The notes: generated from the letters alone by a model not told the origin. A DNA stretch of 64,000 nucleotides from an uncultured Kofleriaceae bacterium (GCA_964617845.1 CAZUAR010000003.1:69908-133907); one strand, 5' to 3'; positions 1-37,638 are shown, numbered from the stretch's first letter. Numbers and translations: made by a program.

Positions 1-816
1 CTCCAACCGCACGCCCGCTCGCGCCAGCAGCGCATGCACGTCGCGCGCGGAGTGCCCCGTCGCCATCACGACCGCGCGGCCCAGGACCTCGCCGCCATCG
101 GCCAATCGCACGCCGACCGCCCTGCCCTCGTGCACCACCAGGTCCACCACGCGCGCACCGAACCGAACCTCGCTGCCGACGCGCTCGAGCGACTCGCGCA
201 TCGCGGTGATCACCTTCGGCAGCTTGTTGCTGCCGATGTGCGGCCGCGCGTCGACCAGGATATCCCTCGGTGCGCCGTGCAACGCGAGCACCTCGATCAC
301 GTCGCGCACGTCGCCGCGCTTGTGGCTCCGCGTGTACAGCTTGCCGTCGCTGTACGTGCCCGCGCCGCCCTCGCCGAAGCAGTAGTTGCTATCGGGATCC
401 ACGCGCCCGTGCTGCGTGAGCCCCTTGAGGTCGCGCCGCCGGGCCTGCACGGGCTTTCCGCGATCCACGATCACCGCTCGCACGCCCGCGCGCGCGAGCT
501 CGTACGCGCAGAAGAGCCCCGCCGGCCCACCGCCGACGATGACGACCGGCTCCCCGCTCGTCTCGCGCAGCGCCGCGCCGCCGACCCCCTCCTCGCGCTT
601 GGCACCGACCACGAGGTGGAACCGCACGCGCCCTCGCCGTGCGTCGATCGACCGCTTCCGCAGCTCGAGCTCCGGTAATGCCGATACGCTCACCTCGAGC
701 TGCCGGGCCAACCGCGCACCGAGCGCTGCTGCATCATCCGGCTCGTCGAGCCCGAGCTCGACCGTGTAGTCGCGTTCCGGATCCAGCTGCATCGAGCGTT
801 CGGGCGAGCCTAGCAT
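1..816 (-). CDS. FAD-dependent oxidoreductase (COG2509-like), N-terminal part; the 3' end runs off the window
   Basis: Manual reverse-complement translation from ATG (revcomp of cat at 814-816) gives MLGSPERSMQLDPERDYTVELGLDEPDD...VVIVGGGPAGLFCAYELARAGVRAVIVDRGKPV...GEGGAGTYSDGKLYTRSHKRG. This is a Rossmann GxGxxG FAD-binding motif and the conserved core of uncharacterized FAD-dependent dehydrogenases. There is no stop before position 1, so it is absent from the ORF track. Confidence 0.75.
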   Translation of the reverse strand, partial: MLGSPERSMQLDPERDYTVELGLDEPDDAAALGARLARQLEVSVSALPELELRKRSIDARRGRVRFHLVVGAKREEGVGGAALRETSGEPVVIVGGGPAGLFCAYELARAGVRAVIVDRGKPVQARRRDLKGLTQHGRVDPDSNYCFGEGGAGTYSDGKLYTRSHKRGDVRDVIEVLALHGAPRDILVDARPHIGSNKLPKVITAMRESLERVGSEVRFGARVVDLVVHEGRAVGVRLADGGEVLGRAVVMATGHSARDVHALLARAGVRLE

Positions 817-879
817 TCTCCTCGTCGCCTCACGCTGCACGGGCTCGCCGCTGTGCGATCGACCCGGCACGCTTGTCCA

Positions 880-1154
880 TGGCCGACGAACCGAACGCAC
901 CCGTGAAGGACCCGCAGCCCGACCCGCCGAAGAAGGAGCCACCGCTCCCCGATCCGCCCAAGCAGGATCCGCCTCCGACGGAGCCGCCCAAGCAGGACCC
1001 ACCGCCGGCACCGCACGTCCCTCCGGACGAGGCACCGCACAAGACACCGCCCGAGATCGAGCCGCCGAACCCCGGGTTGCCGGACACGCGCCAGCCGGTG
1101 CCGGTCGAGGATCCGCCGGCGACCGATGACCCGCCGCCGAACATCATCGCGTAG
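880..1154 (+). CDS. proline-rich small hypothetical protein (PPxQDPPP repeats)
   Basis: ATG at 880 (MADEPNAPVKDPQPDPPKKEPP...). Third-codon positions are about 88% G/C, consistent with coding in this genome. The opposite-strand ORF 830..1387 is Gly/Thr/Arg junk antisense to the acidic tail of the neighbouring gene. No signal peptide and no recognisable family. Confidence 0.3.
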
Positions 1155-1247: not shown

Positions 1248-4200
1248 CTAGTTCGTTTCGTCCTCGTCGTCGAGGAGCTCGTCGTCGTCCTCGTCGTCCT
1301 CGTCCTCGTCCTCGTCGTCGTCCTCGTCGTCGTCCTCGTCGTCGTCGTCGTCGTCGTCATCTTCGGCGATCGTCGCGACACCGGCACGCTTGCGCTCTTC
1401 TTCGAACGCTTCGGTCCCTTGACGTGCGGATAGCCATTCCTTGGCCGTCGAGTGTTGCCAGCCCCACTTCGCGGCGAGCACCACGAACATGCCCCCGATG
1501 AGGCGATCGTCGTCGGGCGGCTCTTGCAGCAGCTCCCACTTCACGTGGTGGTTCGAGTGCCGCAGCATTCGATCGAACAGCGCGAACGCGTCGGCGTCGA
1601 GTGGCCCGGTGCGCAGCGCGTGGACCGCCGCTTCGAGGAGCTTGCCATCGGGATCGAGGAGCTCGCCCTGTGGACGCGCGCGATCGATCGCGCCGTGCGC
1701 GGCGTTCACGATCGCCGCGCGCGCGCTGGCGAGATCGCGCCTGCCCGCTTCGGCGACGAGCGACGCGCGGCCGACGAGGTGCGGCTCGGAGAGCAAGGCC
1801 ACGAGAGCGTCGTCGGAGAGGCCACCGACGATCGTCGGGTCGAAGATGGGCGCGGCGGCGATCGGAGCACCGAGCTTGTCGAGGAGCGCGTGCGCGCCGG
1901 CGCGGATGTCGGGCTCCTCGAAGCGCACGAGCCACGCGAGGTCTGCGGCGTCGACGAGCTCGGGGAAGTGATCGGCGATGCGCAGCGCGAAGCGGATGTT
2001 GCGGACGGTGTACTCGTGGTTGTAGTCGACCTCCGAGAGCGCGCGATGGAGCCCGGCGCGAAGCTCGTCGTGCTTCGCGTCGCCGGCCATGGTGAGGGCG
2101 ACGGCGCGGGCGAAGGTCGGCGTGCTGTCGGAGCGGCTCGTGATCCCCTCGGCGAGGCAGGTCCGCATGTGCTCGCGGCGAGCGGGCGTGACGGTGCGCG
2201 CGAGCTTGCCGTAGGCGAAGTGGAGCTCGGCGTTGAGCTCGCCGTCGTTGCGGAGAGCGATCGTCTTCAGCATCGCGTCGATCACCGCGTCGGGAACGTC
2301 GCGCGGCTCGGGTGCGGCGGCGAGACAAGCAGCGAGCGCGTGGGCGGCGGGCGCGCGCGGATCATCGGCGTGCGAGGTGGGTTGCGCGATCACGCGGGCC
2401 AGCGCGGGGACCGCGGACGGGTCGCCGATCGCCGCGAGCGCGTTCGAGGTCTCGGTCAACAAGTCTTCCTTGGTGATCGAGTCGGACATCGACTTGATCG
2501 GCGACGTCTCGAGCACGCGGATCAGCGCGGGGACGCTCGCGCGGTCGCGAAGTGCGCCGAGGATCCGGATCACCCGCGTGCGGCGATGCTCGTAGCGCTC
2601 GGAGGTCGCGAGGATCGGACGCAGCGTGTCGGCGACACGCGCATCGAGGAGCCCGGCGTGCGCGCGTGCGACCAGGACATCGGTCGCGTGGCGGGCGACG
2701 TATCGGCTGCGGTCGTCGTCGCCGTCATCGTCGACATCACCATCGTCGACATCGCCATCGTCGACATCGCCATCGTCGACATCGCCATCGTGGACATCGC
2801 CATCGTCGACATCGCCATCGTCGACATCGCCATCGTCGACATCGCCATCGTCGACATCGCCATCGTCGACATCGTCGACATCGCCATCATCGACATCGCC
2901 ATCGTCATCGGCGCCCTCGTCGTCGGCGGCGACGTCCTCGTCCTCCTCCTCGTCGTCGTCGGCGGCGTCGTGGTCCTGGGCGGCGTCGGCGGGCTCGTCA
3001 TTCGTCGCCCGCAAGGCGGGCATGCGCGTCGTACGCCTCGCATCGTCCTCGTCGCGATCGTCGTCGTCCGCATCGTCCGCATCGTCCGCATCGTCCGCAT
3101 CGTCCGCGTCGGCCGCGTCGTCCGCGTCGTCGAACAGCGCGTCGACGGCCTCCTCGATGTCCTCGACGCCGATCTCCTCGTCCGCGTCATCGTCATCGTC
3201 ATCGTCGTCGTCGTCGTCGTCGGCACCACTCGTGACGATGTCGATCGCCAGCTCGCGCAGCATCTGCGCGACCTCCTCGGGCGACCAGTCACTCTGCGCG
3301 GCGATCCATGCATCGATCGCGTCGTCGCCGCCCTGCGCGTGGACCGCGAGCAGCGGGTTGCCGCCGAGGACGAACGGCTCGCTGGTGTCGCCCATCAGGC
3401 CGCCGTACTTCTGCTGCATCGTGGCGCCGCCGAACCGCGCGTGGATCACCGGCACGATCTCGTCGAGCTTGCTCAGGATCCAGAGGAGGTGGCCGACCTG
3501 CTCCTCGGGCGAGGAGGGCACCGCGAAGCGATCGACCCAGAGGTGCGCCGCGTGGCGCACGCGATCGATCGTCACCGCAGCGTTGCGGTGGCGCCCGCCG
3601 TAGGGCGTCAGCCACAGCGTGTGGAAGCACGCGAGGACCGTGCTCTCGCCGCCGAGCGCGGGGCCCGCGAGCTTGAACGCGATGCCCACGTCCTCCCAGT
3701 CGAGCTCCTCGAGGATCTGCGGATAGCCGTCGACGGGGAAGCGCACGTTGGCGACCATCGGCGGCGGTCCGTGCGACCAGGTGGCGTCGTCGTCGTCCTC
3801 GTCGTCGCCGTAGTCGTCGTCCTCGTCGTCCTCGTCGTCATCGTCGGACGGCGCGGGAAAGATCTGCACGGGCTGCGTGCCTTCGCTCCCGTCGTCGGTA
3901 TAGCCGTCGGCGTCGACCGTCTGCTCCACGATGAAGGCTTCGCCGTCGATGCCGGTGCCCGCGTCGTCCTCGTCGAAGGGATTGCCGTCGTCGCCTCCGA
4001 TGATCGGCAGGCTCGTGCCGGTCTGGAAGAACCACGCCTCCTCGACGCCGTTGGTCGCGGACGCTTCGACGAGGCGGCGTTGCAGCTCGACGTCGGAGCC
4101 GGCCTCGGGCGGCACCCACGGCATGCCCAGGAGGTGGAAGGGCTGATCGTCGTCGCGGGAGGACAGCTCGTCGAGGAAGGCGTCGACGTCGGGCATGATC

Positions 4201-4320
4201 GGCGCGAACTGCCGGACGACGGTGACGAGCGCGGCGTGATCGGCGGGCTGCGCGAAGCGGAGCACGAGGAACGCGAACGCGGTCTCGCCTTGTCGCGGCT
4301 CGAGGCCGTGGATGCGCATC
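1248..4320 (-). CDS. large poly-acidic multidomain protein: unknown N-terminal domains, (DGDVD)n and poly-D/E tracts, C-terminal HEAT/PBS-lyase-like repeats
   Basis: 1083-aa ORF; the likely start is MRIHGLEPRQ (ATG overlapping the upstream stop as TGATG at about 4320). C-terminal repeats of type AVPALIRVLETSP / SAVPALARVIAQP resemble HEAT/PBS-lyase repeats. The terminal 60 aa are almost pure D/E. GC3 and length are far beyond the antisense alternatives. Confidence 0.75.
2735..2905. repeat. tandem 15-bp repeat (atcgtcgacatcgcc, about 11 copies) inside the CDS, encoding (DGDVD)n
   Basis: Directly visible in the sequence 2741-2905: near-perfect tandem copies with occasional single-base variants (tggacatc, atcatcgac). 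Confidence 0.85.
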
Positions 4321-7300
4321 AGTTGCCTTCCTGACGCGCGTGCCACTCGCGGAACAGCGCCTTGAACTCCGGCCACTCGAGGAGCGCGCCGAGGTCGGTG
4401 TCGACCTCGACCTTCTGGACATGATCGTACTCGTGCTCGATCGCGAGCTTCACCTGCTGCAATGCTCGGGCGTAGTCGCCGACGGCGGCGTAGGCGCACG
4501 CGGCCGAGTGATAGATGTACGGGTTCTCGTGGGCGACGGACTGTGCGCGGTCCGCGATCTTGACCGCCGCGGCGAAGGCCTTGGCGGCGTGGGCCTGGAC
4601 GCAGGCGTTGTTGAGCGCGCGCAGGTAGTTCGCGCGGTCGGTGCCGCTCTCGGGGATCGGTTCGGCGAGCACGCGATCGTAGAGCGCCATCGCCGCCTCG
4701 GGCTGCTCGTGCCTGATCGCCTTGTAGGCGAGCGCGGATAGCAGATCGACGCTATCCGGCAGCATCGGCACGAACGCACGCATGCGATCGGGCGCGTGCT
4801 CGAGGATCAGCTCGCCGAGCTCGCCGAACAGCTCGGGCGAGATGTCGCCGAACGAGACCATCGTCGTCGAGAGGACCGTGTCGACGGCGTCGACGAACCG
4901 GGCGTGCCCGCGCTGGCCGAGGCGAACGGCGACGTTGATCCGAGTCCCGGGCTCGAACGCGGAGAGGCGGCCGAGCAGCTCGTCGATCGTCCCCGGCAGG
5001 CCGGCGTCGTCGCCGTCCACGAGGAGGATCGCGTGCGTGAACTGGATGTCGGGGTCCGACGGCGCGAGGCGAAGCGCGCGCGCACTGACCCTCAGCGCGG
5101 CCGCGACTCGCTCGGGTCGTGTCTGCCGCGGCTCGGCATCGTCGGCACCGTCGTCGTCGTCGTCGTCGTCGCCGTCATCGTCGTCCGCGTCGGGCTGGCT
5201 CGCCGCCTTCGCGGCGCGGCGCGCGTTCTCCTCGTCGATCATCGCCTTCGCGCGCGCCGGATCCGCGATGCCCTTGACGTCGACGACGGCTCCGTCGCGC
5301 GCCGTGATGTAGCTCGGCGTCACCTCGATCTCGAGAGCGGGCCACGCCTCGAAGTCGTAGGCACCGGCCTGTGCCTCGCGGAGTTGCACCTCGATCTCGC
5401 GCGCGAGCTCCTGCGTGACGAGCAGCGTCAGCTGATTGTCGGCGAGCGTGTAGCCGACGGCGCCGGCGGGTTGCAGCTCGAGCACCTGGCCGCGCCCGCG
5501 TAGCTCGTAGGGACGGTCGTGTCGCAAGCGCCCGCGCATCGCACGCGGCAGCGCTGGTGCGTACAGGGCGCCGAGCTCGATCCGCACGCGCCCGTCGTCG
5601 ACATCGAGCTTCATCTCTCCCGCAAACGAAAGGTCCTCGGACGATCCCTCGGCGGCGACTCGCTGCTCGACCTCGCGCGCGACGATCGGATCGTCGAGCA
5701 CCGACGAGCGTGCGAGATCGGTGACGAGCACCGGCAGCTTCGTGCGCAAGATGTCGACGAGGCCCGTCGTCGTCCACTCCTGGATCAGGCGGTACTCGTC
5801 GTCGGTGATCCCGACGATCTGCACGAAGCGCGCGGCACCGAACGGCGACTCGATCTCGCCGAGCTCGGGATCATCGGCGAAGCACACGGCCGTGATCTTC
5901 GTGTCGTGATCGAGCGCGATCGGCCCGTTGAGGCCCATCTTGTGCCCCGCGGCGAACGCGTTGCCCGAGTTGAAGACGTAGCGCGCGAGGTTCTGCAGGA
6001 AGTTGAGCGCCCACGTCGGCGGCTCGTGATCGTCGAGCGCGCGCGCGATGCGCAGCGTCAGCTCGAAGCCGAAGCCGCTCTCCTCCGGATCATCGGTCTC
6101 CTTGTGATGGAGGTCCGTGAAGCCATACGTGACGAAGTGCCAGTGCGGCACCGGCTCGACGCGCTCGTAGGCCGACAGTCCGGGTAGCGGATCGTCGCCG
6201 CCGAGGCCGTACGGCATCACCGTGCCCCAGTGCTGCGGCCGCTGGTCGGGATAGATCTTCGCGAGCGCGCGATCGATCGCGTCCCAGCCCGGCATCGCGT
6301 CGTCATCGCGATCGTCGTCGGCGTCGGCGTCGTCGTCTGCGCCGATCGCCGGTGTCGAGCCGCCGGGCTCGGGCTTCATCACGACGCCGCCGAGCGCGTC
6401 ATCGCGCAGCAGGCTCCCGACGAGCACCGCCTCCATCTCGGGCGACAGCTCGGCGGCGATCCGCGGCACCACGACCGCGCGCTGTGCATCGTCGAGCGTC
6501 TCCAGCTCGTCGAGCGCGACGATGGGCGCGGGATCCTCCGCGTTCAGCTTCGCGAGCAGCGTGCGATGCGCGACGCCGTCGTCGATCCACTTCCACGCGA
6601 GCTCGGGCCACGCGCTGCGGCCCGCCCGTTCGAGCTCCGCGGCGACCTCCGCCGCTCGCTTGGCATCCTGCGCGGCTTTCGCGGCGGCGCGCTCCGCCCG
6701 CAGCGCTTCACCGCGCGGGTCGAGATCGAGCGCGCGGAACTCGGCGAGCCATGCACGCACGTCCTTGATCGTGCCGAGCGTGTTGCGCCCGCCGCGCAGC
6801 TCGTCGATCAGCTTCGCAGCATCGCGCACGAGCCGCGCTGCATGAACGCGCGCGATCTCGAGGTAGCGATCGAGCTCCGGCTCGTCGAACAGGTACGCGC
6901 GCCACATCGCGTAGAGCGCCGTCGGGATGAACTTCTCGCACGCCTCGTAGCGTGCGGGCAGCTGCTCCGCCGGCACGACCTGATTGAGCTCGGGCTGGAA
7001 CAGGTCCGGGATGTCCTCGATGTCGACGACGCCGTCGTTCTTGAGCAGCGCGCAGATCCAGCGCGAGCGGTAGAAGAAGAACTCCGACTCGCGACGCTTC
7101 GCCTCGAGGTGCACGAACGCGGAGTCCTTGTCGTCGATCGAGAAGTGCCACGTCGGCGAGACCTTCCCGCGCAGCGCCTGAATGCCGCGGTCGTACGCCT
7201 CCTGCGAGATCTTCTTCGCCTCGCCGAGCTTCACGATCGACGCGAGGTAGACGAGGCTGTCGAGCGAATCGGCGAACACGCCGCTGAACGACGCGGTCTC

Positions 7301-8802
7301 GTGATCGAAGTGGATGATCTGACGAGGGCCGTCCCACTCGTAGATCTCCATGTGATAGGTGTCGCCGTTTCCCTGCGAGCCGATCCCGAACACGCCGCAG
7401 AACGCCTCGACGAGATCCGTCCCGAGATACGCCTGCTGGTTGCGGCGGACCATCAGCTCGAACAGGTTCTTCTCGCCGACATCGGGCCGGATGTCGTTGT
7501 CGAGCCGTAGCTCCTCGAACGTCGACCACGAGTTGGCCCCCTCGATCTTCGACCAGAACGCGACGGCCTCCGGCGGCATCGGCACGCCGTAGATGTCGGC
7601 GAAGTCGTCGGCGTCGCCGGGCTGCGCGAGGACCGAGAACGCCTCCTCGTCGACGGGGTTGCCGTCGTCGTCTACTTCCTGCGTGCCCTGCTCGTCGCCT
7701 TCCTCGTCGTCGTCGTCGTCGTCGTCCTCGTCGTCGTCTTCTTCGCCGTCGTCCTCGCCGTCGTCGTCATCCTCGTCGTCGCCCGCGTCGTCCTCGTCCT
7801 CGTCGACCTCGTCGAGAGACGCGAGGTACAGCGACAGCCCGCGCTCGATGAACCCGGTCGGCCCCGCCGCGAACAGCACGTCGAGATCGCGCGGGCCGCC
7901 GAACACGTCGACTCTCTCGGCCCACGTCAGGTCACCGGGCGGCGCGAGCTTCACGACGAGCCCGTCGTCGCCGCCGATCAGCACGCCGCCGCCGAACCGC
8001 TCGACGCCCCAGAGGTGCACGAGGCCGAGCTTGTTCGGCACGCTCGCCCACGAGCGCCCCTCGTCCGACGACACGAGCACCGTCCCGCGATCACCGACGA
8101 CGACGACGCGTCCATCGCGCAGCGTCGCGATGCCTTCGAGATCGACCTCGCTGTCGACCTTCACCCGCGAGAACCACGTGCCGTCCGGCGAGCGCCCGAT
8201 GAAGCCGCCGTCGCCCGTCACGATCCACGCGGACTTCGTGCACGCGAGCGCGGTCAGCGGCTTGGTCGTGCCCGTGTTGAGCACGGTCACCTTGCCGTCG
8301 ACCCAGCGGCGCAGCTTGCCGTCGAAGCCGAGCACGCAGATCTCGTCGCGCACCGCGTACACCGCCGACAGCCGCGCCGTCGTGTCGAAGTCCACGCGCA
8401 CCGGCCTCTCGCCGAGGATGCGCACCGCGAAGCCGTTGTCGCCGACGCACCAGATCGCCCCGTCGGTTCCCAGCGCGAGACCGAACAGACACAGCTGGGT
8501 ATCGACGTCGATCAGCGTCCAGGTCTCGCCGTGGTCGCGCGACGTCGCGAGCTGACCGTATTCGCCGCACACCCAGATCGCGTCACCGACTGCGAGCGCG
8601 TCGCGCAGCCCGAGGGCGCGCGGCGTGGAGCGCAGCTCGTAGCGACGCGCGTTCGACGACGCCATGATCGTCGCGTGCGATCCCGATCCGCCCGACGCGA
8701 CGACCATCTGGTCGGTCACGGCGAACGCGCTGATGAAGCCCCGATCCCCCGCCGCCGCCTGCAATATCGTCAGCTCGAGCTCCCCGATCATCGCGCGCCG
8801 AT
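4319..8802 (-). CDS. giant multidomain acidic protein: N-terminal BNR/Ycf48-like beta-propeller, SUKH (SMI1/KNR4)-like domain, SUFU-like domain, TPR-like C-terminus, several poly-D/E linkers
   Basis: Start is MIGELELTILQ (ATG revcomp at 8800-8802). BNR motifs SRDHGETW, SPDGTW, SDEGRSW sit in the first about 330 aa. The SUKH-like block is GNGDTYHMEIYEWDGPRQIIHFDHETASFSGVFADSLDSLVYL. The SUFU-like block is YPDQRPQHWGTVMPYGLGGDDPLPGLSAYERVEPVPHWHFVTYGFTDL...GFGFELTLRI. The stop TGA overlaps the next ATG. Confidence 0.75.
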
Positions 8803-8853: not shown

Positions 8854-10530
8854 CTAGTCCGTCGCGTCCCAGTAGTCGACTTCGGCTTGCACGGCGGCCG
8901 AGAGATCCTCGCCGCCGCCGCCCTTCACGGCCCACAGATAGTCCGTGAAGAAGTTGTTGCGTACGCGCGTCACGCCGAAGTGCGGCTGGTCCGCGAGGAT
9001 CGCCTCCGCGGTCAGATCCGTTCCGCCGTGCTGGTGGCAACCGATGCAGTTCGTCGCCGCGTTGCCCGGCCCGAGCTCGAGGTACGGGTTACTGCACCAC
9101 GACGGCTCGTTCGTCCCGCGGTTCACCACCGCGAGCGCGTCGCCGAGCGTCCCCGAGAACCCGCCGCGCGGATCCGGATCCCCCTCGAGGTACTGCGTCG
9201 CGACGCACATCTTGTAGTTGCGCCACGGCCCCGCGTTCGCGAGCGCCGCCGGACGATCTGCTCCGAAGTCGGTGTCGGGGAACGGCGAGTACCACAGCGT
9301 GATCCACATCCAGTGGTCGAGCTCCTTCGACATGATGTGCAGCGCCGGCAGCCGGAACTTCGCGCCCGTCGATGGAACGATCATCGTGTAGATGTCCGCC
9401 GGCCCCGGCCCCATCTGGCCATCCTCGTTCCACGTCGACTCGCTCTCGAAGCGCGCGGCCATGCGATCCGCCGACGTGTTGAACACGGGCAGGAGGTCGT
9501 TCAGCTGGAACTGCCGCCGCCAGTCCGCCTTCACGACCACCGCGTCGCGAGGCATCTCTCCATCGAGGCAGGTCGGCAGCCGCACGTCCGCCGTCGTGTA
9601 GGCGACATCGACGTCGACGTCGGCGTCGCTCGCCGCGAACACCGCGACCCACACGGGCCCGCCACCGTCGACCTCGCAGCTCTCGCTCGACGAGTCGCCG
9701 TCGGACTTGCAGTCGTACGTCGCGGCATCCGGTGCCTCTCCGCGACGCACGTAGATGTCGGCGTCGCCGGAGCCGCGCGACGTCACCTTCACGCGCGCGT
9801 CGCCGGCTTGAAACGGACCGAGCACGCGCCACGCGCACTTGTCGAGCGCGAGCTGCTCGCTCGCCGTCGTCGCCTGACCCTCGCGCATCTCGCTCGCGTC
9901 GAACGGCTCGGGCGCCGGGTTCAAGCGGCACTGATGCAGCCGCTCGTAGCTGGAGAGCAGGTGTTTGAGCGCGCCCGGCGAGTAGCCGACCCGCGTCGCG
10001 TTGGTCAGCCCCTGCGCGAGCTCCGGCGAATCGATCGCCGCGAGGTAGTCGAGGTATCGCTGCTCGGGCCACTCGGGGACATCATCGAGCGCGACCGCAT
10101 TCCACGCGAAGCCGCTCGCCGGATCGATCGCCGCGCGAGCGGCGCGCCCCGCCGGGCCGAGTCCCTCGTAGAGGTGCTTGAAGATGCGCTCGAAGTCATC
10201 GCGCGCGTACCACGTCGCCCACGCGGGCACCGTCGGCTGCGTGCCGCCGAAGCTGCTCGCGAGCCGCGGGTCCCCGAGGGGGACCGGTGCGAGAACCTTC
10301 TGCACGACATCCCACGCCGCCGCGCGACGCGACGCGATCGACGTGCGCAGCTCTTCATCGCGCGCCGCGAGCCCGAGGTCGGGCGTGTACGGCGCTGCTT
10401 CACCGACGACGCGCCGGTCTTGAATCAGCGACGCGCTCGACACCTCGCCCATCGACTCGAGATCGCAGTCGGCGGTCTTGTCGTCCGGCCCGCAGGCCGC
10501 GACGAGAACGAGGAGAGCGATACGACGCAT
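8854..10530 (-). CDS. secreted lipoprotein with one CxxCH heme-binding motif and a PPC (pre-peptidase C-terminal)-like domain
   Basis: MRRIALLVLVAAC lipobox signal. CIGCHQHGG is near the C-terminus. The block GDADIYVRRGEAPDAATYDC is shared with the downstream paralog. Confidence 0.7.
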   Translation of the reverse strand: MRRIALLVLVAACGPDDKTADCDLESMGEVSSASLIQDRRVVGEAAPYTPDLGLAARDEELRTSIASRRAAAWDVVQKVLAPVPLGDPRLASSFGGTQPTVPAWATWYARDDFERIFKHLYEGLGPAGRAARAAIDPASGFAWNAVALDDVPEWPEQRYLDYLAAIDSPELAQGLTNATRVGYSPGALKHLLSSYERLHQCRLNPAPEPFDASEMREGQATTASEQLALDKCAWRVLGPFQAGDARVKVTSRGSGDADIYVRRGEAPDAATYDCKSDGDSSSESCEVDGGGPVWVAVFAASDADVDVDVAYTTADVRLPTCLDGEMPRDAVVVKADWRRQFQLNDLLPVFNTSADRMAARFESESTWNEDGQMGPGPADIYTMIVPSTGAKFRLPALHIMSKELDHWMWITLWYSPFPDTDFGADRPAALANAGPWRNYKMCVATQYLEGDPDPRGGFSGTLGDALAVVNRGTNEPSWCSNPYLELGPGNAATNCIGCHQHGGTDLTAEAILADQPHFGVTRVRNNFFTDYLWAVKGGGGEDLSAAVQAEVDYWDATD

Positions 10531-10615
10531 GGGGAAGAGTGACGACAAGTGTAGACGCAAAAAGGGAGACTGGTGTGACCAGTCTCCCGTCGGGGAACTG
10601 CCTATCCGTCCTCGA

Positions 10616-13600
10616 TCAGGGGTTGGTCAGCGCGGCGTCGCTCGCCACCGCGTACTCCTTGCCCGAGTTCGTGTCGCGGACGAGGAAGTAGAACCAGCCG
10701 TCCGAGCGGAAGTGCGGGAACAGCGCGAACTGGCCGGCCTGCATCGTCGTGACGCGAGTGCGAGCACCCGTGAGCATGTTGACGAGGATGATGTTCGCGG
10801 TGCCCTTCTCGAGGAGCGTCCTGAACGCCGGGTCGTTCGCCGACGAGTAGCCGAGGTCGGCGTAGTCCGCCTCCGTGATGTAGTGGTGCGTCACGAAGTA
10901 CTTCTCGTCGAAGGAGATGCTCGGCTTCGCACCCTGCGTGCAGTAGCGACCGACTTCCGTCGTCGTGATCGTGTAGCTCTGGCCGTTCGGGACCGTGTTC
11001 AGCTTGCGAACGACGTAGCCGAGGTGACCGCTCGCGTTACCGATGCGCGAGATGACGAGCTTGGTCGACGGCGAGAGGACGGTGTCACCCTCGTACGGGA
11101 CCTTCACGCGAACCTCCGGCTTGCCGACGTAGTGCGCGCCGTCGAACACCATCGGCGTGAACTTCATCTCGGCATCCGCACCGAACGCCGCCGCCGGGTC
11201 ACCGGTCTCGCCCGCGCTCGGGTTATCCGACGTGAACTGGCTGTTGACCGCGAAGTAGTCGGCGCCCGCGAGGCCCGCACCGAGGTGCTGGTAGAGGCTG
11301 ACCGTTCCGACCGACGAGCACGCCGACTCGGAGAAGTTGATGCTGTCGGGGTTCGACGTGAGCAGCGACATCTTGCAGAACGCCGCGCCGATCGGGGTGC
11401 CCTGGAACATCCAGCCGCGGTTATCCGGGAAGAAGCCGGGGTCGTACGCCGCGTCGACGTTCATGTCCTTGTTGGTCTGGAGGTCGGAGATGACCGCGCC
11501 GTCACCACCCGAGCGCGAGCCGTTCGCCACGAAGCGACCGTCCGCCGAGGAGCGCATCCAGTAGAAGGTGTTGAACGCGAGCTCGCGAATCACGCGCAGC
11601 GTTCCGACCTTCGTCCAGCCGTTCGCGTACGGCTTGCTGGTGGCGTTCGGCGACGACTGGAGGCACTGCTTCGGGTCGGTCGTGCCGGCCGCGCAGCCGA
11701 ACATGTTGATGTTGGCCTGGCGGTTGACCGCGCCCCAGCCGCTGGTCGCCATCGCGTTCACGTGCGTCGACATCTCCGGCTTCACCGACTGCGTGCACGA
11801 GGTCGGGCCCGTGTCGGCCGGCAGGTAGATGGACGCGCGCGGGATGCCACGAGCGAACCACTCGGCGATGATGTCGAACTCCGGCTGCGTGAAGCGCGGG
11901 TGGTTGCCCTTCGGCATCGACACGCGGTTCTTGAACTTGCCGTACTCGAGCGCCCACGTGTCGGCGTTGTTGCCGTCCTGGCCATCCGGGTACGCCTGCT
12001 TGAAGACGTCCTGGAACCAACCGAGGTGCGAGCCCGCGGCGTAGATGCCGAGCTTGCCCGGGTTGAACGGCGAGTCGTCCTGGTCGGGGTCGAGGCGGAA
12101 CTGCGCGACGCGGTCCTTGGCGGGCATCGCGTTCGCGAGCGGCTTGACGTACTTCGTCGTGACCTTGACCGTGCCGTCGTCCGAGCCGAACAGACCGACG
12201 TAGAACGTCGCCGGGCCGGCCGCGTTGAAGATCGTCTTGTCGCACTTCTCCGTCGACGTCTGCGCGAACGGGCGGCAGTCGTACTGCGTCTGCGAGACCT
12301 CCGCACCGCGGCGGACGTAGAGGTCGATGTCACCGGTGCCAGCGATCGAGATCTCGATCTGCGAGCCCGCGGCCACCTCGTACTCGCCGACCTCCTTGAA
12401 CTCGTTGTTCTCGACGCGGATGCCGGCGGACGTGCTGTTCACGGCCTCGCCCTGCGCGTCCGCATCGCGGAACGCGGTCATGACCGCGTGGTCCGTCTTC
12501 TCTTTCCAGTCCTCGAGCGTCGCGATGTTGCCGACGTGGCAGTCCGTGCAGTTGTTCTTGAGCGCGTTCTTGTTCATGCCGAGCAGCGTGGTCGCCTGCT
12601 TCGCGAGCTCGTCGTCCGAGAGGTTGACGGGGTTGCGGAGGCGGCCACCGGCGTCAGCACCACCGAGCGTCTCGGGGACCGGCTTCCAGTCGCAGCCAGC
12701 GCCGGACGGGTTCGTGTTGCACGCCTGGATGAAGTCGAGCGCCTTCTTCTGCTCCGACGCGTCCCACTCCTCTTGCGAGGCGAACACGTGGTCGGTCGGC
12801 ATCCAGTACTTGTTCTCCGGCTTGAGGCCGTGGTTCGTCGTGATGTTGTTCCACGCGGTGTCCGTGCCCTCGAGGCGCGTGAGCCACTGGTCGGCCCAGC
12901 GACCGTCGCCCATGCGGTGGCACTTGGTGCACGCGTTCGCCGCGTCACCCGTGATGTGCTTCGGCATCGTCCAGCCCTGGCCCTTGCGGTTGACGAGAGC
13001 GTACGGCGTGTCGTTCGCGCCGATCGCGAAGTCCGGGTCGATGCCCATCTTCGGGATCACGGGGCGGCCGTTCTGATCCTTCGCGCCGTCGATCCATGGG
13101 CTGTGGATGAACGCGTCGGCGTCGTGGCAGCTCGCGCACTCGATGCCCGAGCCGAGGCCGCCGTGCACGCCGGCCCACAGGTTCGACGACTTCACCTTGT
13201 CGCCGGGGTGCGGGACGTGCGCGCCGTCGGTCTTCTGATAGAGCGCGTTCTGGAAGAAGCAGGTCTTACCGGTGAACGGGTTCGTACCGATCATCGCGAT
13301 GTCGTTGAACTTGGACGACGAGTAGCTGCCACCCGTGCCCGACTCGGCGACGCTCTTGCGGCAGAGCAGCACCCAGCGCGTGCCTTGCTCGTTGATGCGG
13401 GTCGCGACGCGCGGGCCGGACTCGCACAGCGAGTAGATGTACTGCGGGTTGTCGCACTTGGACTCGTTGCCCATCTGCGGCGCGTTGACGGTGCCGTTAT
13501 CGGCGGTGACCGTCATCGGGATCGGCGTCGAGTCGAGGCAGTTGTACGTGCCGTAGTCGCCTTCGCCGAGCTTCTCGAAGAACGGAATCTCGCCGAGCTG

Positions 13601-14125
13601 GTCGACGCAACGCTCCGCGTACGCTTCGGGGCTGTTGAGGCGCTGCTCGCCGCTCGGGTCGTCGGCCTTGCCGCCGATGCCCTTGCTGCGCGCCTTGTCC
13701 CACGCCGCGAACAGGTCGCGCTCCTGCGAGAAGATGACCTCGCTGCCGTCCATGATGCAGACGTCGATGATGGAGTCGGTGCCCTTCTTGGCCTGCTCGA
13801 TCATCTCCGGCGTCGGGTTGAGCCACTGGTCACCCTGGTAGAAGGGCTTCGTCAGGTCCTGGTCGACGATCGGGCCGTCGTTGCGGCCCTCGTTCGCGGA
13901 GATGGACTCCACCTCGTTGACCAGCTGGGCGCAGTCGAGCGTCCCGAAGCTGCCGCGGCGAGCGCGTGTGTAGATCGCTCCGTCCACGCTCTGGTTGAGC
14001 TCGATAACGATGCGGCTGTTCGCATGGTTATAGAGGGGGGTCACCTGCAGCTCTTCGTCACATGCCGTGACTCCGAGCGTGAGCGAGGCGAGGATGGCAA
14101 CTCGAGTGGCCGCGCTAGTCCGCAT
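10616..14125 (-). CDS. large secreted lipoprotein with three CxxCH heme-binding motifs (putative multiheme c-type cytochrome) and a PPC-like domain
   Basis: MRTSAATRVAILASLTLGVTAC lipobox. Motifs CASCH, CTKCH, CTDCH. The block GDIDLYVRRGAEVSQTQYDC is paralogous to the neighbour. GC is lower (about 62-64%) than the surroundings. 1169 aa. Confidence 0.75.
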   Translation of the reverse strand: MRTSAATRVAILASLTLGVTACDEELQVTPLYNHANSRIVIELNQSVDGAIYTRARRGSFGTLDCAQLVNEVESISANEGRNDGPIVDQDLTKPFYQGDQWLNPTPEMIEQAKKGTDSIIDVCIMDGSEVIFSQERDLFAAWDKARSKGIGGKADDPSGEQRLNSPEAYAERCVDQLGEIPFFEKLGEGDYGTYNCLDSTPIPMTVTADNGTVNAPQMGNESKCDNPQYIYSLCESGPRVATRINEQGTRWVLLCRKSVAESGTGGSYSSSKFNDIAMIGTNPFTGKTCFFQNALYQKTDGAHVPHPGDKVKSSNLWAGVHGGLGSGIECASCHDADAFIHSPWIDGAKDQNGRPVIPKMGIDPDFAIGANDTPYALVNRKGQGWTMPKHITGDAANACTKCHRMGDGRWADQWLTRLEGTDTAWNNITTNHGLKPENKYWMPTDHVFASQEEWDASEQKKALDFIQACNTNPSGAGCDWKPVPETLGGADAGGRLRNPVNLSDDELAKQATTLLGMNKNALKNNCTDCHVGNIATLEDWKEKTDHAVMTAFRDADAQGEAVNSTSAGIRVENNEFKEVGEYEVAAGSQIEISIAGTGDIDLYVRRGAEVSQTQYDCRPFAQTSTEKCDKTIFNAAGPATFYVGLFGSDDGTVKVTTKYVKPLANAMPAKDRVAQFRLDPDQDDSPFNPGKLGIYAAGSHLGWFQDVFKQAYPDGQDGNNADTWALEYGKFKNRVSMPKGNHPRFTQPEFDIIAEWFARGIPRASIYLPADTGPTSCTQSVKPEMSTHVNAMATSGWGAVNRQANINMFGCAAGTTDPKQCLQSSPNATSKPYANGWTKVGTLRVIRELAFNTFYWMRSSADGRFVANGSRSGGDGAVISDLQTNKDMNVDAAYDPGFFPDNRGWMFQGTPIGAAFCKMSLLTSNPDSINFSESACSSVGTVSLYQHLGAGLAGADYFAVNSQFTSDNPSAGETGDPAAAFGADAEMKFTPMVFDGAHYVGKPEVRVKVPYEGDTVLSPSTKLVISRIGNASGHLGYVVRKLNTVPNGQSYTITTTEVGRYCTQGAKPSISFDEKYFVTHHYITEADYADLGYSSANDPAFRTLLEKGTANIILVNMLTGARTRVTTMQAGQFALFPHFRSDGWFYFLVRDTNSGKEYAVASDAALTNP

Positions 14126-14251
14126 GCTGTGCGGTAAGAGCAACGTTGGCGCCAACCGTGCACAGTAGTGATCACACGATCATGGGCCTGGCCGGCAACT
14201 CGGGTAGCTGGCGTGACGCGTTTCTTCTGGCCGGCAAACGGCCTGTAGACC

Positions 14252-15458: not shown

Positions 15459-17288
<1,830 letters not shown>

Positions 17289-17324
17289 CGGGAAGCTCCT
17301 CTACGAAGGTCGGCCGCGTGGGCG

Positions 17325-17344
17325 CTGAATGAACCGTCATTCAG
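17325..17344. promoter_or_regulatory. perfect inverted repeat CTGAATGA-N4-TCATTCAG in the divergent promoter region (candidate operator)
   Basis: Seen directly. It sits 37-56 bp upstream of the acyl-CoA dehydrogenase ATG and overlaps the first alternative ATG of the divergent TolB-like gene. Confidence 0.4.
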
Positions 17345-17394
17345 TTTATGGCCACACTTACGCGTCGCGTCAACCACCGTCGGGAGATTCCGTC

Positions 17395-18333
17395 ATGGGA
17401 TGCTGGGACGTGGTCCGGCCTCGCGAACCGCGATGTCTCCCTGCGAGTGGATGCGCGTTCATCGCGCTCCTGCTCGGCTGCGGTCGCATCGGGTTCGATA
17501 CCGGCTCGTCGATCGATGCGCCGGGCGACGGTGGGCCCGACACCTCGATCGACGCACCGCTGGCGTTCGGTCCGTGGCTGACGCCGACCGAGGTCGCCGT
17601 GATGAACACCACCTCGATGGACTTCGGTCCGACGTTCTCGCCCGACGCGAGCGAGGTGTACGTGTCTCAGCGGTTCACCGGTGACGCGGAGATCTTCCGC
17701 TTCACGCGTGCGGATGCCGCGAGCGCGTTCGGAAACAAGACCGCGATCGCCGCCATCAACGTCTCCGGCGGCTCGGAGGAAGGCGAGCCATCGCTGTCCG
17801 ACGATGGGCTCGAGCTGTGGTTCAACAGGTACGCGCCCGATCGGATCTTCGTGAGCACGCGCTCGAGTGTCACCGTGACCGATTGGACCGCGCCGGTGCT
17901 CGTCGACACGATCCATCCGAACCTCGCCGGATTTCATTCGCCTGACTTCTCTGCCGATCGACACATGGTGCTGACGAAGGACGGGATGATCTGGGAAGCG
18001 ACGCGTCCGTCGTCGACGTCGCCGTGGGGCGCACCGGTCTCGCTCGGCATCACCGGCGACGTTCCGTGCATGCGCCGCGACGGGCTCGAGCTGCTCTACG
18101 AAGGCGCGGTCACGATCGCCGGCATGCCGTCCGTCGCGATCATGCGCCGCACGCGCGCGTCGATCGGCGTCGCGTTCGGTCCCGAGGAGCGGCTCTCGTT
18201 CGGCGCGCTCGATGTCGCCGGCGTCGGAGATCCCGAGCTGAGTCACGATGGAAGCACGCTGATCTTTTCGGCGGAGGAGGTGCTCGGAAACGTGACTTAC
18301 GATATCTACATCTCGGAACGAGTCATCGAGTGA
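17395..18333 (+). CDS. TolB-like/PD40 beta-propeller repeat lipoprotein
   Basis: Lipobox IALLLGC after a charged N-region. WD40-like beta-propeller (PD40) repeat character (SPDASEVYVS, SDDGLELWFN, SHDGSTLIFS). Start chosen at ATG 17395, which has a GGGAGA RBS; an alternative ATG is at 17329. Confidence 0.65.
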   Translation: MGCWDVVRPREPRCLPASGCAFIALLLGCGRIGFDTGSSIDAPGDGGPDTSIDAPLAFGPWLTPTEVAVMNTTSMDFGPTFSPDASEVYVSQRFTGDAEIFRFTRADAASAFGNKTAIAAINVSGGSEEGEPSLSDDGLELWFNRYAPDRIFVSTRSSVTVTDWTAPVLVDTIHPNLAGFHSPDFSADRHMVLTKDGMIWEATRPSSTSPWGAPVSLGITGDVPCMRRDGLELLYEGAVTIAGMPSVAIMRRTRASIGVAFGPEERLSFGALDVAGVGDPELSHDGSTLIFSAEEVLGNVTYDIYISERVIE

Positions 18334-21621: not shown

Positions 21622-22096
21622 CCTCCGACCGGGAGGGCTTCCGTGACTCCATGCATCAACCAGTGAGTACATACCTTCGTACCCGGGCGTCGCGGAGCGT
21701 CCGCATCCCGGTCCGGAGTCTGACGTAACGACGCACGCCTGCGTGACAACTTCTCTGGTGGGAGCAGTTGAGGCGTGTCGCCCGGCACTGCGCCCCCTTC
21801 CGCAAGTGGTGCCTTCGAGCTGATTGGATCGTCTCACGCCGTCGACTTCGGTCTCGCGTCGGATCGAGAGTGCCGCTGATCGCAAGGTCAGCTTGTAGCT
21901 CGATCCGAGCAGATCGTCTCCGGACCAGGCGCGCTACCGGTCATCTACGTTGCCTCTGACGAGCGGTGCTCGCGGCTCTTGCGCGCGCTGCCACCCGAGA
22001 GGCCATGGTGATGATCGAGAGCGCAGCGGGCTCCTCGACGCACATTTACGCGCGGCTATCGCCGCGCAACCCGATTTTGTGGACACTCGACTACAC

Positions 22097-25000
22097 AGGA
22101 TGCGCGACCTCGAGCTCTCGCGGCGGATCGACGACGGCATCGTCACGCCCGACGATCTCGCGCCGCTGGCGATGACCCCGCTCGGTGGTCGCGGCGTGTT
22201 CCTCGGCCGGCTCGCGGCGCTCGCGGCGCACGAGGATGCGGCGCTGCGCACGGCGGCGCTCGCGTGCCTGGCGGGTGCGCGCGGAATGCGAGCTGTGCGC
22301 GCCATCGTCGCGCGGCTCGATGACGCCGACGAGAGGGTGCGAGCAGCGGCGGTCGACGCGCTGCGCGTGACCGCCCGCGAGGCGCCGCATCGCTACGCGC
22401 ACGCGCTGTTTCACCCGCGCGTCGACGTGCGGCGGATGGCGCTGCACCAGGTGCCGTCGGGGATCGCGGAGGTCGCGTCGTACCTGCGCGCGGATCCCGA
22501 GTGCGCGGATCTGATCAAGGACGTGCCGTGGCCCGATCCGAGGCTGCCGCTCGTGTTCGACCTGCACGCGACGGCAATGCTCGGCTCGGCGGAGATGATC
22601 CGCATCGTCGCGTGGTCGCCTCCGCACGAGATGAGGTCGTTCCTCGAGCGCGAGCACGGACGCATGGAGTCGGAGGTCGACGCGTACCTCGAGCAGTGCG
22701 CGCGCGATCCGGTGCTCGTGCCCGCGCCGCGCGCGGATGCGATCGATCAGCTGTGGCGCGCGATCGCGGAGGCAGGCGCGTACGAGCGCGAGCTCGAGAT
22801 GGTGATCGTCACCGCGACCCTGGCGAAGAAGAAGAACCCGATCGGGCGGCGCATGGTGGCGTCGCTGCTCTCGCACCTCGCGCGCGATCCGAGGCCCGAG
22901 CTGTGGGGCGCGCTCGCGACGCTGGAGCCGCGCTCGCTCGACTGGGCGTGCTTCGATCGCACGCAGGCGGACGCGGTCGCCGCCGCGCTGATTCGCTTCA
23001 AGTGGCCCGTGCGCCCGCTCGCCGCGCAAGCGCTGCGGCTGTTGAACCTCGCGTGGGTGAAACGCGACCTCGCGCTCGCCGCGGCGATCGCCGGCCTGTT
23101 GCCCGCGAAGCGCCTGCACCGGCTCGCGGAGGCCTTCGGCGAGCCCGCGCTCCTCGACGCGCTCGTCGCGGACGATCGCGGATGGGTCCAGATCTGTCAC
23201 CTGCCGCAGGAGAAGCCGCCGCACGATCAACGCTGGCTCGCACAGATCGAGCGCACGCGGCCCGCGCGAACCGCGGAGCTGGCGGGCATCGCGCTCGGCA
23301 TCTTCAGCGGGAAGCGGCTCGAGGCGTTCATCGATCAACTTCAACGCCGCACGCGCCCGCTCGCGTTCATCGCGCTCGTGCGGCGCACCGCGCTCGAGGC
23401 CGACGATCCGCGCATCCTGACGGCGGCGGCGATGATGTCGACGCGGATCGATCGCGCCGGGTGGACCGAGGTGCTCGCGGCGCTGCTCGAGCCGGGCACG
23501 CCGCAGCGCGAGCTCCTCGTCGCGATCATCGTGATCCGCGCGCTCGCCGACAACATGGTCAAGACCGTCGCGACGGCGCTGTCGGATGCCGCGCTCCTGC
23601 GCGTCGTCGAGATCGTGGACACCGTCGACGGCGAGGACGCGCTGCCGCGCAGTCGCGAGGTCGCGCTCGCCGAGGCCGCGTCGCTGCGCAAGGACCCCGC
23701 GCTGCTCCTGTGGTCCGCGAAGATCCTCGCGCCCGCGACGTCGGCACCCACCGTCGTGGTGCCGCCGGTGCGCGCGAAGCGAACGCTGACCGAGGACGAG
23801 CAGAGGGAGATCATCGCCGCGCCGCTCGCCAAGCTCGAGGAAGCGCTCGCACCCGCGCTCGGCTCGCCGACGGCGGGGCTCGTCGACGCGCTGTCGCGGC
23901 GCGCGGCGCATCCGAGCGTCGCTGCGTGCGCGGCGCTGCTCGGGTGCGTCGATCCGATGCCGGAGGTCGCCGTCCAGCTCGACCGCTTCGCCGAGCGCAC
24001 CGCGAAGTTCGAGTCCGCGCTCGACAACGCGGCCGCGGCCGCGTGGGGCACCGGCCGCCCTGCCCTGTCGAACCTGCCGCTATTCGAGGACTCGCAGCTC
24101 CCGGCGCTCGTGCACGCGAGACTCTGGCGCTGGGAAGCGCACACCGAGCAGCTCGCGAAGTGGATCGCGCGCTTCGGCAGTGCGCACGGCGCGCTGACGG
24201 CGATCGCCGGGCTCGAGGGCTGGCTCGCCGTCTCGACGATGTGGCGCGGCATCGCGGAGGTGCTCGTGTTCGCGCGCTATCGCGATCGCACGCGCTTCTT
24301 CGCCGAGGGCACCGAAGCGCTCGCGAAGTACGCGGCGGAGCGAGTCGACCAGCACTTCGGGCTGCAGGCGGCACGCGTGTGCGTCGCGCTCGTCGAGGGT
24401 GGCGCCGTGCCGATCACGTCGATCCGCTCGATCATCCTCGACCGCACGCCCGACGCCGACGCGGAAACGCGCGATCAGCTCGCGCGCTTGATCCGCCTCG
24501 ACGGCATGCCGACGCCGCCGCGCACGATCGAGATCGGCATCACGTCGGCATCGCTGATCGAGAAGATTCGCTCCACGAAGGATCTCGACGCGCTCGAGCG
24601 GTACTGCGCCGACGCGCGGTTCGCGGTCGTGCAGGAAGCGGTGCTGATGATGCTCACGATGGGCGAGCACGGACAGCTTCGCCTCGCGCACCTGCTCGCG
24701 CGCCTCGGGGAGCTGCCCGCGCCGGTGCCGCTGCTCGCGAGCATCGCGCTGTGGGACTCCCCCGCGGCGCTCGACATCGCGCGCACGCTCGCCGCAAACG
24801 CGAACCTTCCCGCGGAGTGGCAGTTCCATCTGTGCCTCGGTCTCGGCGACATCCAGCGCGCGATCGCGGCGATTCACGTGCCCGGTACGAGCTGGTTCCG
24901 CCGCACCGACTGGGACGCGCTGACCAAGCAGATCACGCTCCGCGAAGCGGCGCTCGCGCTCGTCGATGCGCCGCATCACCACGCCTACGCGCGCTCCGTC

Positions 25001-37565: not shown

Positions 37566-37596
37566 GACATCCTCCTGAGTGCTTTCCTCCCTGGCG

Positions 37597-37611
37597 TTCC
37601 ACGGCGTGGAA
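37597..37611. promoter_or_regulatory. palindrome TTCCACG-g-CGTGGAA in the divergent intergenic region
   Basis: Seen directly between the TPR gene and the STAND NTPase gene, 28 nt upstream of the proposed ATG at 37639. Confidence 0.3.
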
Positions 37612-37638
37612 CAACCGTTCCGCGGTAGTTTCGAGCAC

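Follow-up and report, generated by a model that had tools for sequence, protein, structure and literature searches.

We analysed a 64,000-nt stretch of DNA (hereafter the window) from an uncultured Kofleriaceae bacterium, a soil myxobacterium (GCA_964617845.1, CAZUAR010000003.1:69908-133907). Among its 30 open reading frames (ORFs) are two adjacent minus-strand genes, here called A and B, which encode very large, acidic multidomain proteins. Numbering follows the whole window, and protein lengths and positions are in amino acids (aa).

4319-8791, minus strand: gene A, an uninterrupted ORF of 1490 aa, with ATG at 8791 and stop codon TGA at 4321-4319
1248-4319, minus strand: gene B, an uninterrupted ORF of 1023 aa, with ATG at 4319-4317 and stop codon at 1250-1248
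4317-4331, minus strand: A/B junction, made up of a GGAAGG Shine-Dalgarno motif (4331-4326), CAAC and TGATG, in which stop and start share 1 nt

The Shine-Dalgarno motif of gene B sits within the final codons of gene A. A sequence-only reading of this DNA had proposed that the two genes are translationally coupled through a TGATG overlap, and the arrangement GGAAGG-CAAC-TGATG bears this out; the overlap implies that the two proteins are produced in roughly equimolar amounts. The protein sizes given in that reading (about 1020 and 1490 aa) and its strand logic are also correct. The left end of its span (1248-8802) agrees with the stop codon of gene B, but the right end lies 11 nt upstream of the ATG of gene A. 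It listed the sizes in plus-strand order when naming an upstream and a downstream protein, although its domain list implies that the 1490-aa protein is the upstream one.

Both genes have the coding signature of genuine genes in a genome of 69% GC, with a GC content at third codon positions of 0.86-0.89 in their frames, and GC is uniform along the window. A protein 100% identical to A is present in NCBI (P0001). We identified 112 homologue clusters for A and 110 for B, whose members share the architecture and are of similar length. Since neither ORF is interrupted and each has about 110 homologue clusters, we rule out that they are pseudogenes, frameshifted ones (a possibility raised in the earlier reading) included, or low-complexity artefacts. 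The exact sequence of protein B is not in a collection of 15 billion proteins that does contain protein A of the same contig; the public annotation of B probably uses a start codon other than that of the ORF at 1251-4319 on the minus strand. A promoter and terminator scan was uninformative in this GC-rich DNA.

The two proteins divide into the following modules and linkers, where D/E stands for aspartate and glutamate.

7853-8791, minus strand: probable beta-propeller of BNR/Ycf48 type (A 1-313), from Pfam PSII_BNR (PF14870) and Ycf48-like PDB sequence matches
7628-7852, minus strand: poly-D/E linker 1 (A 314-388), with DNA tandem repeats at 7661-7814; its position is kept in most relatives and its length varies
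7202-7627, minus strand: s2, divergent SUKH-fold domain (A 389-530)
6344-7201, minus strand: s3, all-helical domain of no known family (A 531-816), which follows the s2 SUKH variant without exception
6296-6343, minus strand: short acidic linker (A 817-832), sequence DDDADADDDRDDD; 42-66 aa in some relatives
5702-6295, minus strand: SUFU N-terminal domain (A 833-1030), from Pfam PF05076 and the human SUFU match
5222-5701, minus strand: s5, SUFU C-terminal domain (A 1031-1190), from profile A5 and a colinear family profile
5096-5221, minus strand: poly-D/E linker 2 (A 1191-1232), from D/E content, recurrence in relatives and tandem repeats
4322-5095, minus strand: helical/TPR C-terminal module, or TPR end (A 1233-1490), from NCBIfam TPR_END_plus
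3885-4319, minus strand: n1, predicted ferredoxin-like alpha/beta domain (B 1-145), from a structural model
3747-3884, minus strand: poly-D/E loop between n1 and n2 (B 146-191), disordered in the model
3279-3746, minus strand: n2, second predicted ferredoxin-like alpha/beta domain (B 192-347), from a confident model; the most conserved part of B
2688-3278, minus strand: poly-D/E tract of about 200 aa with GDVDD repeats (B 348-544), encoded by a 15-nt tandem repeat (12.5 copies, 2726-2906)
1422-2687, minus strand: HEAT-repeat module (B 545-966), from Pfam HEAT_PBS (PF03130)
1251-1421, minus strand: acidic C-terminal tail (B 967-1023), with a 3-nt repeat at 1279-1375

The SUFU module of protein A is the most firmly assigned, and it comprises both domains of the human protein. 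Pfam PF05076 matches residues 865-1028 over nearly the whole profile (1-171 of 172; 139.4 bits against a cut-off of 25, E = 1.4e-40), and human SUFU (4km8) is matched at 3e-39, with closely similar motif blocks across 218 residues. For the C-terminal region, profile A5 retrieves only SUFU chains from the PDB, the C-domain included (6e-5), and the Pfam SUFU_C family matches weakly (4 of 32 members, best E = 0.0011). We also compared the profile of a bacterial 'long SUFU' family (A8, from P0379-P0478) with PDB entries 4bl9 and 4km8. It is colinear with the two domains of human SUFU, N-terminal as well as C-terminal (profile 4-316 against 4km8 residues 52-410, E = 7.6e-67), and the human C-domain motif LRGRLLHGRHF (R386, R388) corresponds to an invariant RGRxxHGR. 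Bacteria of several phyla also have SUFU as a stand-alone protein of about 350 aa, which is 40-50% identical to A 833-1190 and covers 95% of it; such proteins are widespread, so SUFU is not a eukaryote-like oddity of this lineage. Stand-alone SUFU lies among metabolic genes in Lysobacter and beside Ank/DUF4274 and small unknown genes in Lysinibacillus; overall, the neighbourhoods of these relatives are housekeeping contexts that give no functional hint. Precomputed Pfam lists assign the ~350-aa bacterial proteins PF05076 only, despite their colinearity with both human domains.

In human SUFU, the N and C domains clamp a beta-strand of GLI, and the pocket residues are Tyr147, Asp159, His164 and Glu376 (PMC3852661). 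By analogy, the two-domain SUFU of A probably clamps a short linear peptide between its own N and C domains, as human SUFU does with the SYGHL strand of GLI. Of the pocket residues, the Tyr147 equivalent never varies, and His and Asn stand in place of Asp159 and His164, respectively; given these changes, the ligand motif is expected to differ from the GLI-like SYGH.

The SUKH domain is more divergent. The sequence-only reading had described a SUKH (SMI1/KNR4)-like module at this place, and none of the direct searches recovers it: in Pfam and NCBIfam scans, SUKH/SMI1_KNR4 hidden Markov models (HMMs; PF09346, SUKH_3-6) give nothing at E <= 10 on A 389-600 and nothing at E <= 0.01 across 32 family members, A included; the s2 profile finds only spurious leucine-rich-repeat matches among PDB sequences; and a Foldseek search with the s2+s3 model against the PDB gives nothing at E < 1. 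Homology through intermediate sequences, however, supports the assignment. The AlphaFold2 model of A 376-832 is confident (predicted local distance difference test, pLDDT, 91.7; predicted template modelling score, pTM, 0.77), and s2 has the alpha+beta fold of SUKH domains in it. The s2 profile retrieves just 146 representatives among 1.84 billion proteins, and among its remote homologues SMI1_KNR4 is matched by 15 of 40 short proteins and by 9 of 32 long ones (best 9.5e-10), and SUKH_6 by 6. These matches coincide with the stretch matched by s2, for example residues 27-147 against 27-159 in P0310. Because of this fold and these coincident matches, we accept A 389-530 as a divergent SUKH domain, by fold and transitive homology rather than by a direct HMM match. 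The adjoining s3 (about 290 aa) bears most of the invariant residues of the family and gave no sequence or fold match.

The remaining modules of A and B are repeat structures or appear to be new domains. The isolated propeller of A scores 26.8 bits with PF14870, just below the cut-off of 27 (20.6 bits in the full protein), but PSII_BNR matches 25 of 32 relatives at E <= 0.01 (best E = 2e-7), and the closest PDB sequences are Ycf48-like proteins (E = 0.02-0.07). At the C terminus of A, NCBIfam NF047558 (TPR_END_plus) matches residues 1429-1480 with 33.5 bits against a curated cut-off of 32; Pfam TPR families are all sub-threshold on this module, and SGT, TOM71 and Hop are weak matches in the PDB search. 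The HEAT region of B reaches 29.4 bits with HEAT_PBS, for which the cut-off is 20.9, and is matched weakly by HEAT_2; its profile matches PDB chains of CpcE-type phycocyanobilin lyase and alphaRep. The n1 and n2 domains were modelled together (pTM 0.81); n2 holds 24 of the 28 invariant columns in an alignment of 43 sequences and has no family match in domain and profile searches. The analysis thus defines two domains, s3 and n1-n2, that match no family. The recognisable modules of the two proteins are all of kinds that bind other proteins; no match to a catalytic, membrane, toxin, NTPase or effector family was obtained for any of them. Overall, the earlier assignments of SUFU and TPR to A and of HEAT repeats to B are confirmed, the SUKH assignment stands by indirect homology, and that of the propeller is borderline in A itself, with matches in most of its relatives.

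As the same reading had described, the globular modules are separated by long D/E tracts. Defined as at least 50% D/E per 30 aa, acidic tracts occupy residues 314-388 and 1185-1232 of A and 145-191, 348-544 and 967-1022 of B. The D+E content is 18.8% in A (net charge -137) and 26% in B (net charge -188); the other 28 ORFs of the window contain no poly-D/E tracts and have net charges of -35 to +30. The tracts are encoded by tandem DNA repeats with periods of 3, 9, 12 and 15. Throughout the family, acidic linkers reappear between the same modules but vary in length and sequence.

To survey the locus, one genome per species was scanned, which yielded 56 loci, all from metagenome-assembled genomes (MAGs) of Kofleriaceae/Haliangiales/Myxococcota. 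The homologue clusters of A and B likewise come nearly all from Kofleriaceae/Haliangiales MAGs; the carriers of the pair that we found are uncultured MAGs only, and the genus Lujinxingia, which has relatives with a SUKH-s3-HEAT-WD40 architecture, is cultured. B adjoins A in all 41 type I/II loci with room downstream, and the junction, CAGGAGGGCAAC followed by TGATG or TAGTG, is kept in 39 of these 41. The conserved order is two cytochrome-like lipoproteins, 0-5 genes, A, B and a DUF8436/HI0933-type flavin adenine dinucleotide (FAD) oxidoreductase. The pair is single-copy and its synteny is fixed in about 40 species-level genomes (about 40 of the 56 loci). Among 18 orthologues, mean pairwise identity is 0.72 for the TPR end, 0.69 for SUFU-N, 0.63 for s3, 0.60 for the propeller and 0.54 for SUKH. 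The pair evolves like a vertically inherited housekeeping gene, with SUFU among its most conserved modules.

The architecture is not uniform across the family. In addition to 66 clusters with the full architecture of A, 18 have propeller-SUKH-s3-TPR without SUFU, 10 have propeller-SUKH-s3-HEAT, 2 carry SUFU and HEAT in one chain, and 8-10 have n1-n2-TPR. These variants indicate that the C-terminal TPR and HEAT modules swap between A and B across lineages. One locus (L002, on the same contig as L045) contains, at 15730-17964 and downstream of two tandem propeller-SUKH-s3-HEAT genes, a gene for a 744-aa protein composed of SMI1_KNR4 (37.7 bits), poly-D, TsiV (PF11876, 56.8 bits) and the A-type TPR end. 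TsiV is a type VI secretion system (T6SS) immunity domain for VRR-NUC. The n1-n2 region is unrelated to this protein by hhalign. The record of this locus is labelled 'Actinomycetota', yet its genes look Kofleriaceae-like.

No toxin gene was found beside the pair among the neighbours scanned by Pfam, as the sequence-only reading had noted. Pfam toxin families are absent (E <= 0.001; one ORF without any match) from the start of the window, which lies only about 1.2 kb past the end of B and thus leaves that side barely covered, to about 18 kb upstream of A, and from the precomputed Pfam tables of three related loci.

Given these analyses, we propose, with a probability of roughly 0.45, that A and B together make up an adaptor or sequestration scaffold of the Kofleriaceae, a two-subunit cytoplasmic assembly that is lineage-specific and inherited vertically. 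The scaffold or sponge suggested in the sequence-only reading would agree with this proposal. Coupling, conservation as a pair and module swapping suggest that A and B act together, most simply in one complex. In such a complex the globular modules may hold one partner each: SUFU would clamp its peptide, and the SUKH-s3 unit would probably offer a second binding cleft. The D/E tracts could space the modules flexibly and possibly attract basic clients as an electrostatic bait. Conserved endogenous proteins are likelier clients than polymorphic toxins, given the high conservation of SUFU and the other modules and the absence of toxin families from the neighbours examined; SUKH and SUFU would then act as adaptors, as in eukaryotes. 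The pair also appears to belong to a wider Myxococcota family with a core of SUKH-s3, HEAT and beta-propeller. We consider it unlikely that the pair represents, in the Kofleriaceae, a cytoplasmic machine with this core that occurs across the Myxococcota and has not been described before, in which SUKH and the complete two-domain SUFU tether conserved endogenous clients as adaptors, as SUFU does with GLI, and not for immunity. If true, bacteria would set a precedent for adaptor functions of the two superfamilies, which have so far been ascribed to eukaryotes, and this would provide a handle on the ancestral SUFU ligand.

Several points weigh against an adaptor scaffold. Bacterial SUKH and SuFu are chiefly known, and to our knowledge almost only known, as toxin-immunity domains. 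Fixed synteny inside one bacterial family could be explained by shared descent alone, and the gene neighbourhoods yield no functional hint. The SMI1_KNR4 and TsiV domains that precede the same TPR end in L002 point towards immunity. With Asp159 and His164 replaced, the ligand of SUFU is presumably not a GLI-like SYGH motif. The A-B complex and its clients are hypothetical, and the cytoplasmic location is predicted from the N-termini.

The alternative that survives best is that the pair is a fixed 'polyimmunity' sponge, in which SUKH and SUFU (and TsiV in variants) would neutralize toxins delivered by competitors through T6SS, outer-membrane exchange or Rhs, with the acidic tracts helping to capture basic nucleases. 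SUKH and SuFu, the two most widespread immunity superfamilies, are known from polyimmunity proteins in fusions with one another and with TPR or ankyrin repeats (PMC3113570, PMC3482391), and several immunity-type domains occur per chain here as well, a SUKH-fold domain with SUFU in A and SMI1_KNR4 with TsiV in the L002 relative. The architecture of the latter implies that immunity-type domains of different kinds can occupy the position in front of the TPR end. SUFU is optional, given the 18 variants of A without it, and the stand-alone SUFU of Lysinibacillus occurs in a polyimmunity-like context (Ank/DUF4274). However, known polyimmunity loci are strain-variable and often recombinase-linked (PMC3482391), whereas A/B is single-copy with a fixed order in about 40 species-level genomes; neither toxin linkage, among the Pfam-annotated neighbours of the window and of the three related loci, nor a strain-variable polyimmunity array was found. 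The immunity-type modules show conservation equal to or above that of the remaining protein, modules without immunity precedent (propeller, HEAT, s3 and n1-n2) make up about half of each protein, and A has no PADLOC match. This reading is possible but less probable than an adaptor scaffold, which we favour because of the single copy, the fixed synteny, the lack of a toxin family in the neighbours examined, the conservation of the modules and the slow change of SUFU across phyla and as far as humans.

Much less probable is that the pair forms the sensor or decoy arm of a conflict system, in which the immunity-like domains would be baits for invading effectors, and the propeller, HEAT and TPR modules would pass the signal on to an effector whose gene lies elsewhere. 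WD40, HEAT and TPR repeats are typical sensor parts of bacterial STAND/NLR-like systems, and modules are shuffled within the family. In PADLOC, the HEAT region of B matches WGR_XIII (19.9 bits) and the TsiV part of the L002 protein matches PDC-M20B, but both matches are weak and fall on repeat regions. No NTPase, effector, nuclease, protease or TIR-type match was found in A, B or the loci with annotated flanks, and the housekeeping-like synteny and vertical inheritance also argue against this role.

Equally improbable is that the tracts themselves are the functional part, as a cation or polyamine buffer, a nucleic-acid mimic, a chaperone for basic proteins (compare histone chaperones) or a condensate former that the folded modules only localize: the net charges of A and B are unique in the window, the tracts recur at the same boundaries despite varying sequence and length, and a SUFU encoded by a separate gene carries a long charged tail that in one genome is basic and hints at charge-based docking, but such tracts are scarce or missing in several members (P0072, P0076 and most propeller-SUKH-s3-HEAT proteins), no other part of the protein is as poorly conserved (identity 0.37-0.46), and the tracts arise from slippage-prone DNA repeats.

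The genome with this basic tail (GCA_041389925.1), the one such genome checked, encodes an A-like protein without SUFU and, as a separate gene, a two-domain SUFU with a long low-complexity tail (P0369; L066 6001-7722). The tail of P0369 is about 200 aa long, rich in K, A and S, and resembles histone H1; the corresponding tails of P0364, P0365, P0372 and P0373 are acidic. It is conceivable that the tails of such separately encoded SUFU proteins dock to polyacidic partners by charge complementarity.

Upstream of A, the window encodes two paralogous predicted lipoproteins on the minus strand, each with a PPC domain: one at 8854-10560 (lipobox LVAAC, one CxxCH haem-binding motif) and one at 10616-14155 (lipobox LGVTAC, three such motifs). 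Because they are haem-motif lipoproteins, we take them to be extracytoplasmic. Such lipoproteins lie upstream of A in most of the 56 loci, in some with up to 5 genes in between, and on these two grounds we rule them out as partners or toxins. On the other side, an ORF at 1-1047 (minus strand, cut by the window edge) encodes a DUF8436 and HI0933-like FAD-dependent oxidoreductase. This gene follows B in about 33 related loci, in some overlapping it or only tens of nt away, and may belong to the same transcription unit as A and B. Farther away, the ORF at 21950-27118 (plus strand) encodes a 1722-aa protein with weak matches to HEAT at the N terminus and to VWA at the C terminus; acidic tracts are absent from it, and the homologue searches with A and B did not retrieve it. 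Two other long ORFs with gene-like third-position GC content, at 36240-38537 (minus strand) and 37579-40719 (plus strand), overlap by about 1 kb on opposite strands, so at most one of the full-length calls can be right.

The pair provides a conserved, housekeeping-like setting, without a toxin family in the neighbours examined, in which to ask what SUKH and SUFU bind without toxins. The adaptor roles of FBXO3, Smi1/Knr4 and SUFU-GLI are regarded as eukaryotic inventions. The design is also unusual, with interaction modules on repeat-encoded polyanionic linkers, two coupled genes and swapping C-terminal modules. Should the pair prove to be a polyimmunity protein of the usual kind, it would nevertheless be the first to be fixed throughout an entire bacterial family.

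The claim that this architecture is not a described family was overstated, as fusions of SUKH and SuFu with TPR or ankyrin repeats have been described as 'polyimmunity proteins' (Zhang et al. 2011, 2012; PMC3113570, PMC3482391) and NCBI already names relatives of A 'suppressor of fused domain protein'. The literature that we searched contained no match for the coupled pair, s3, n1-n2, the polyacidic linkers, the swapping C-terminal modules, the family-wide vertical conservation or the wider SUKH-s3-HEAT-propeller family. Like the polyimmunity proteins of Zhang, Iyer, Aravind and colleagues, A joins SUKH, SuFu and TPR-type repeats, is predicted to be cytoplasmic and has no catalytic domain, and a locus related to A/B carries SMI1_KNR4 and TsiV. 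Unlike them, A and B are single-copy, vertically inherited and syntenic over the whole family, have no toxin or recombinase in the neighbourhoods examined and contain immunity-type modules that are not fast-evolving. They also add a propeller, s3, n1-n2 and HEAT repeats, are split into a coupled pair and carry long poly-D/E linkers.

Compared with SMI1/KNR4 (SUKH-1) proteins such as YobK (2prv), 3d5p and yeast Knr4 (5j1b), protein A itself fails every SUKH HMM, and the helical s3 (290 aa) invariably adjoins its type of SUKH domain; the two were modelled together with high confidence (pTM 0.77). Compared with eukaryotic SUFU (4km8, 4bl9), both domains are colinear, the Tyr147 equivalent and RGRxxHGR are kept, and an adaptor or tether role is plausible; in A, however, SUFU is one module of a 1490-aa protein, the intrinsically disordered insert of the human type is missing and the ligand cannot be GLI. 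The stand-alone long bacterial SUFU proteins (Lysinibacillus, Lysobacter, Spirillospora and Planctomycetota; 'suppressor of fused domain protein' in PGAP) share the two-domain layout but consist of this single module, without the propeller, SUKH, TPR and acidic linkers of A. Going by its title, a structure paper of 2010 reportedly limits its comparison of bacterial Sufu-like proteins to the N-terminal domain.

Beyond the Kofleriaceae, the SUKH-s3 unit occurs in uncharacterised SUKH-s3-HEAT-WD40 proteins of about 1500 aa in Bradymonadales, in which no SUFU, n1-n2 or TPR_END match was seen. One of these, WP_164855860.1 from Lujinxingia sediminis (named 'PQQ-binding-like beta-propeller repeat protein'), shares SUKH-s3, HEAT and a beta-propeller with A/B. 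In contrast to the pair, the Bradymonadales proteins are single chains, and their WD40 propeller is C-terminal, whereas the BNR-type propeller of A is N-terminal. They probably represent the ancestral single-chain form of the module set that is divided between A and B.

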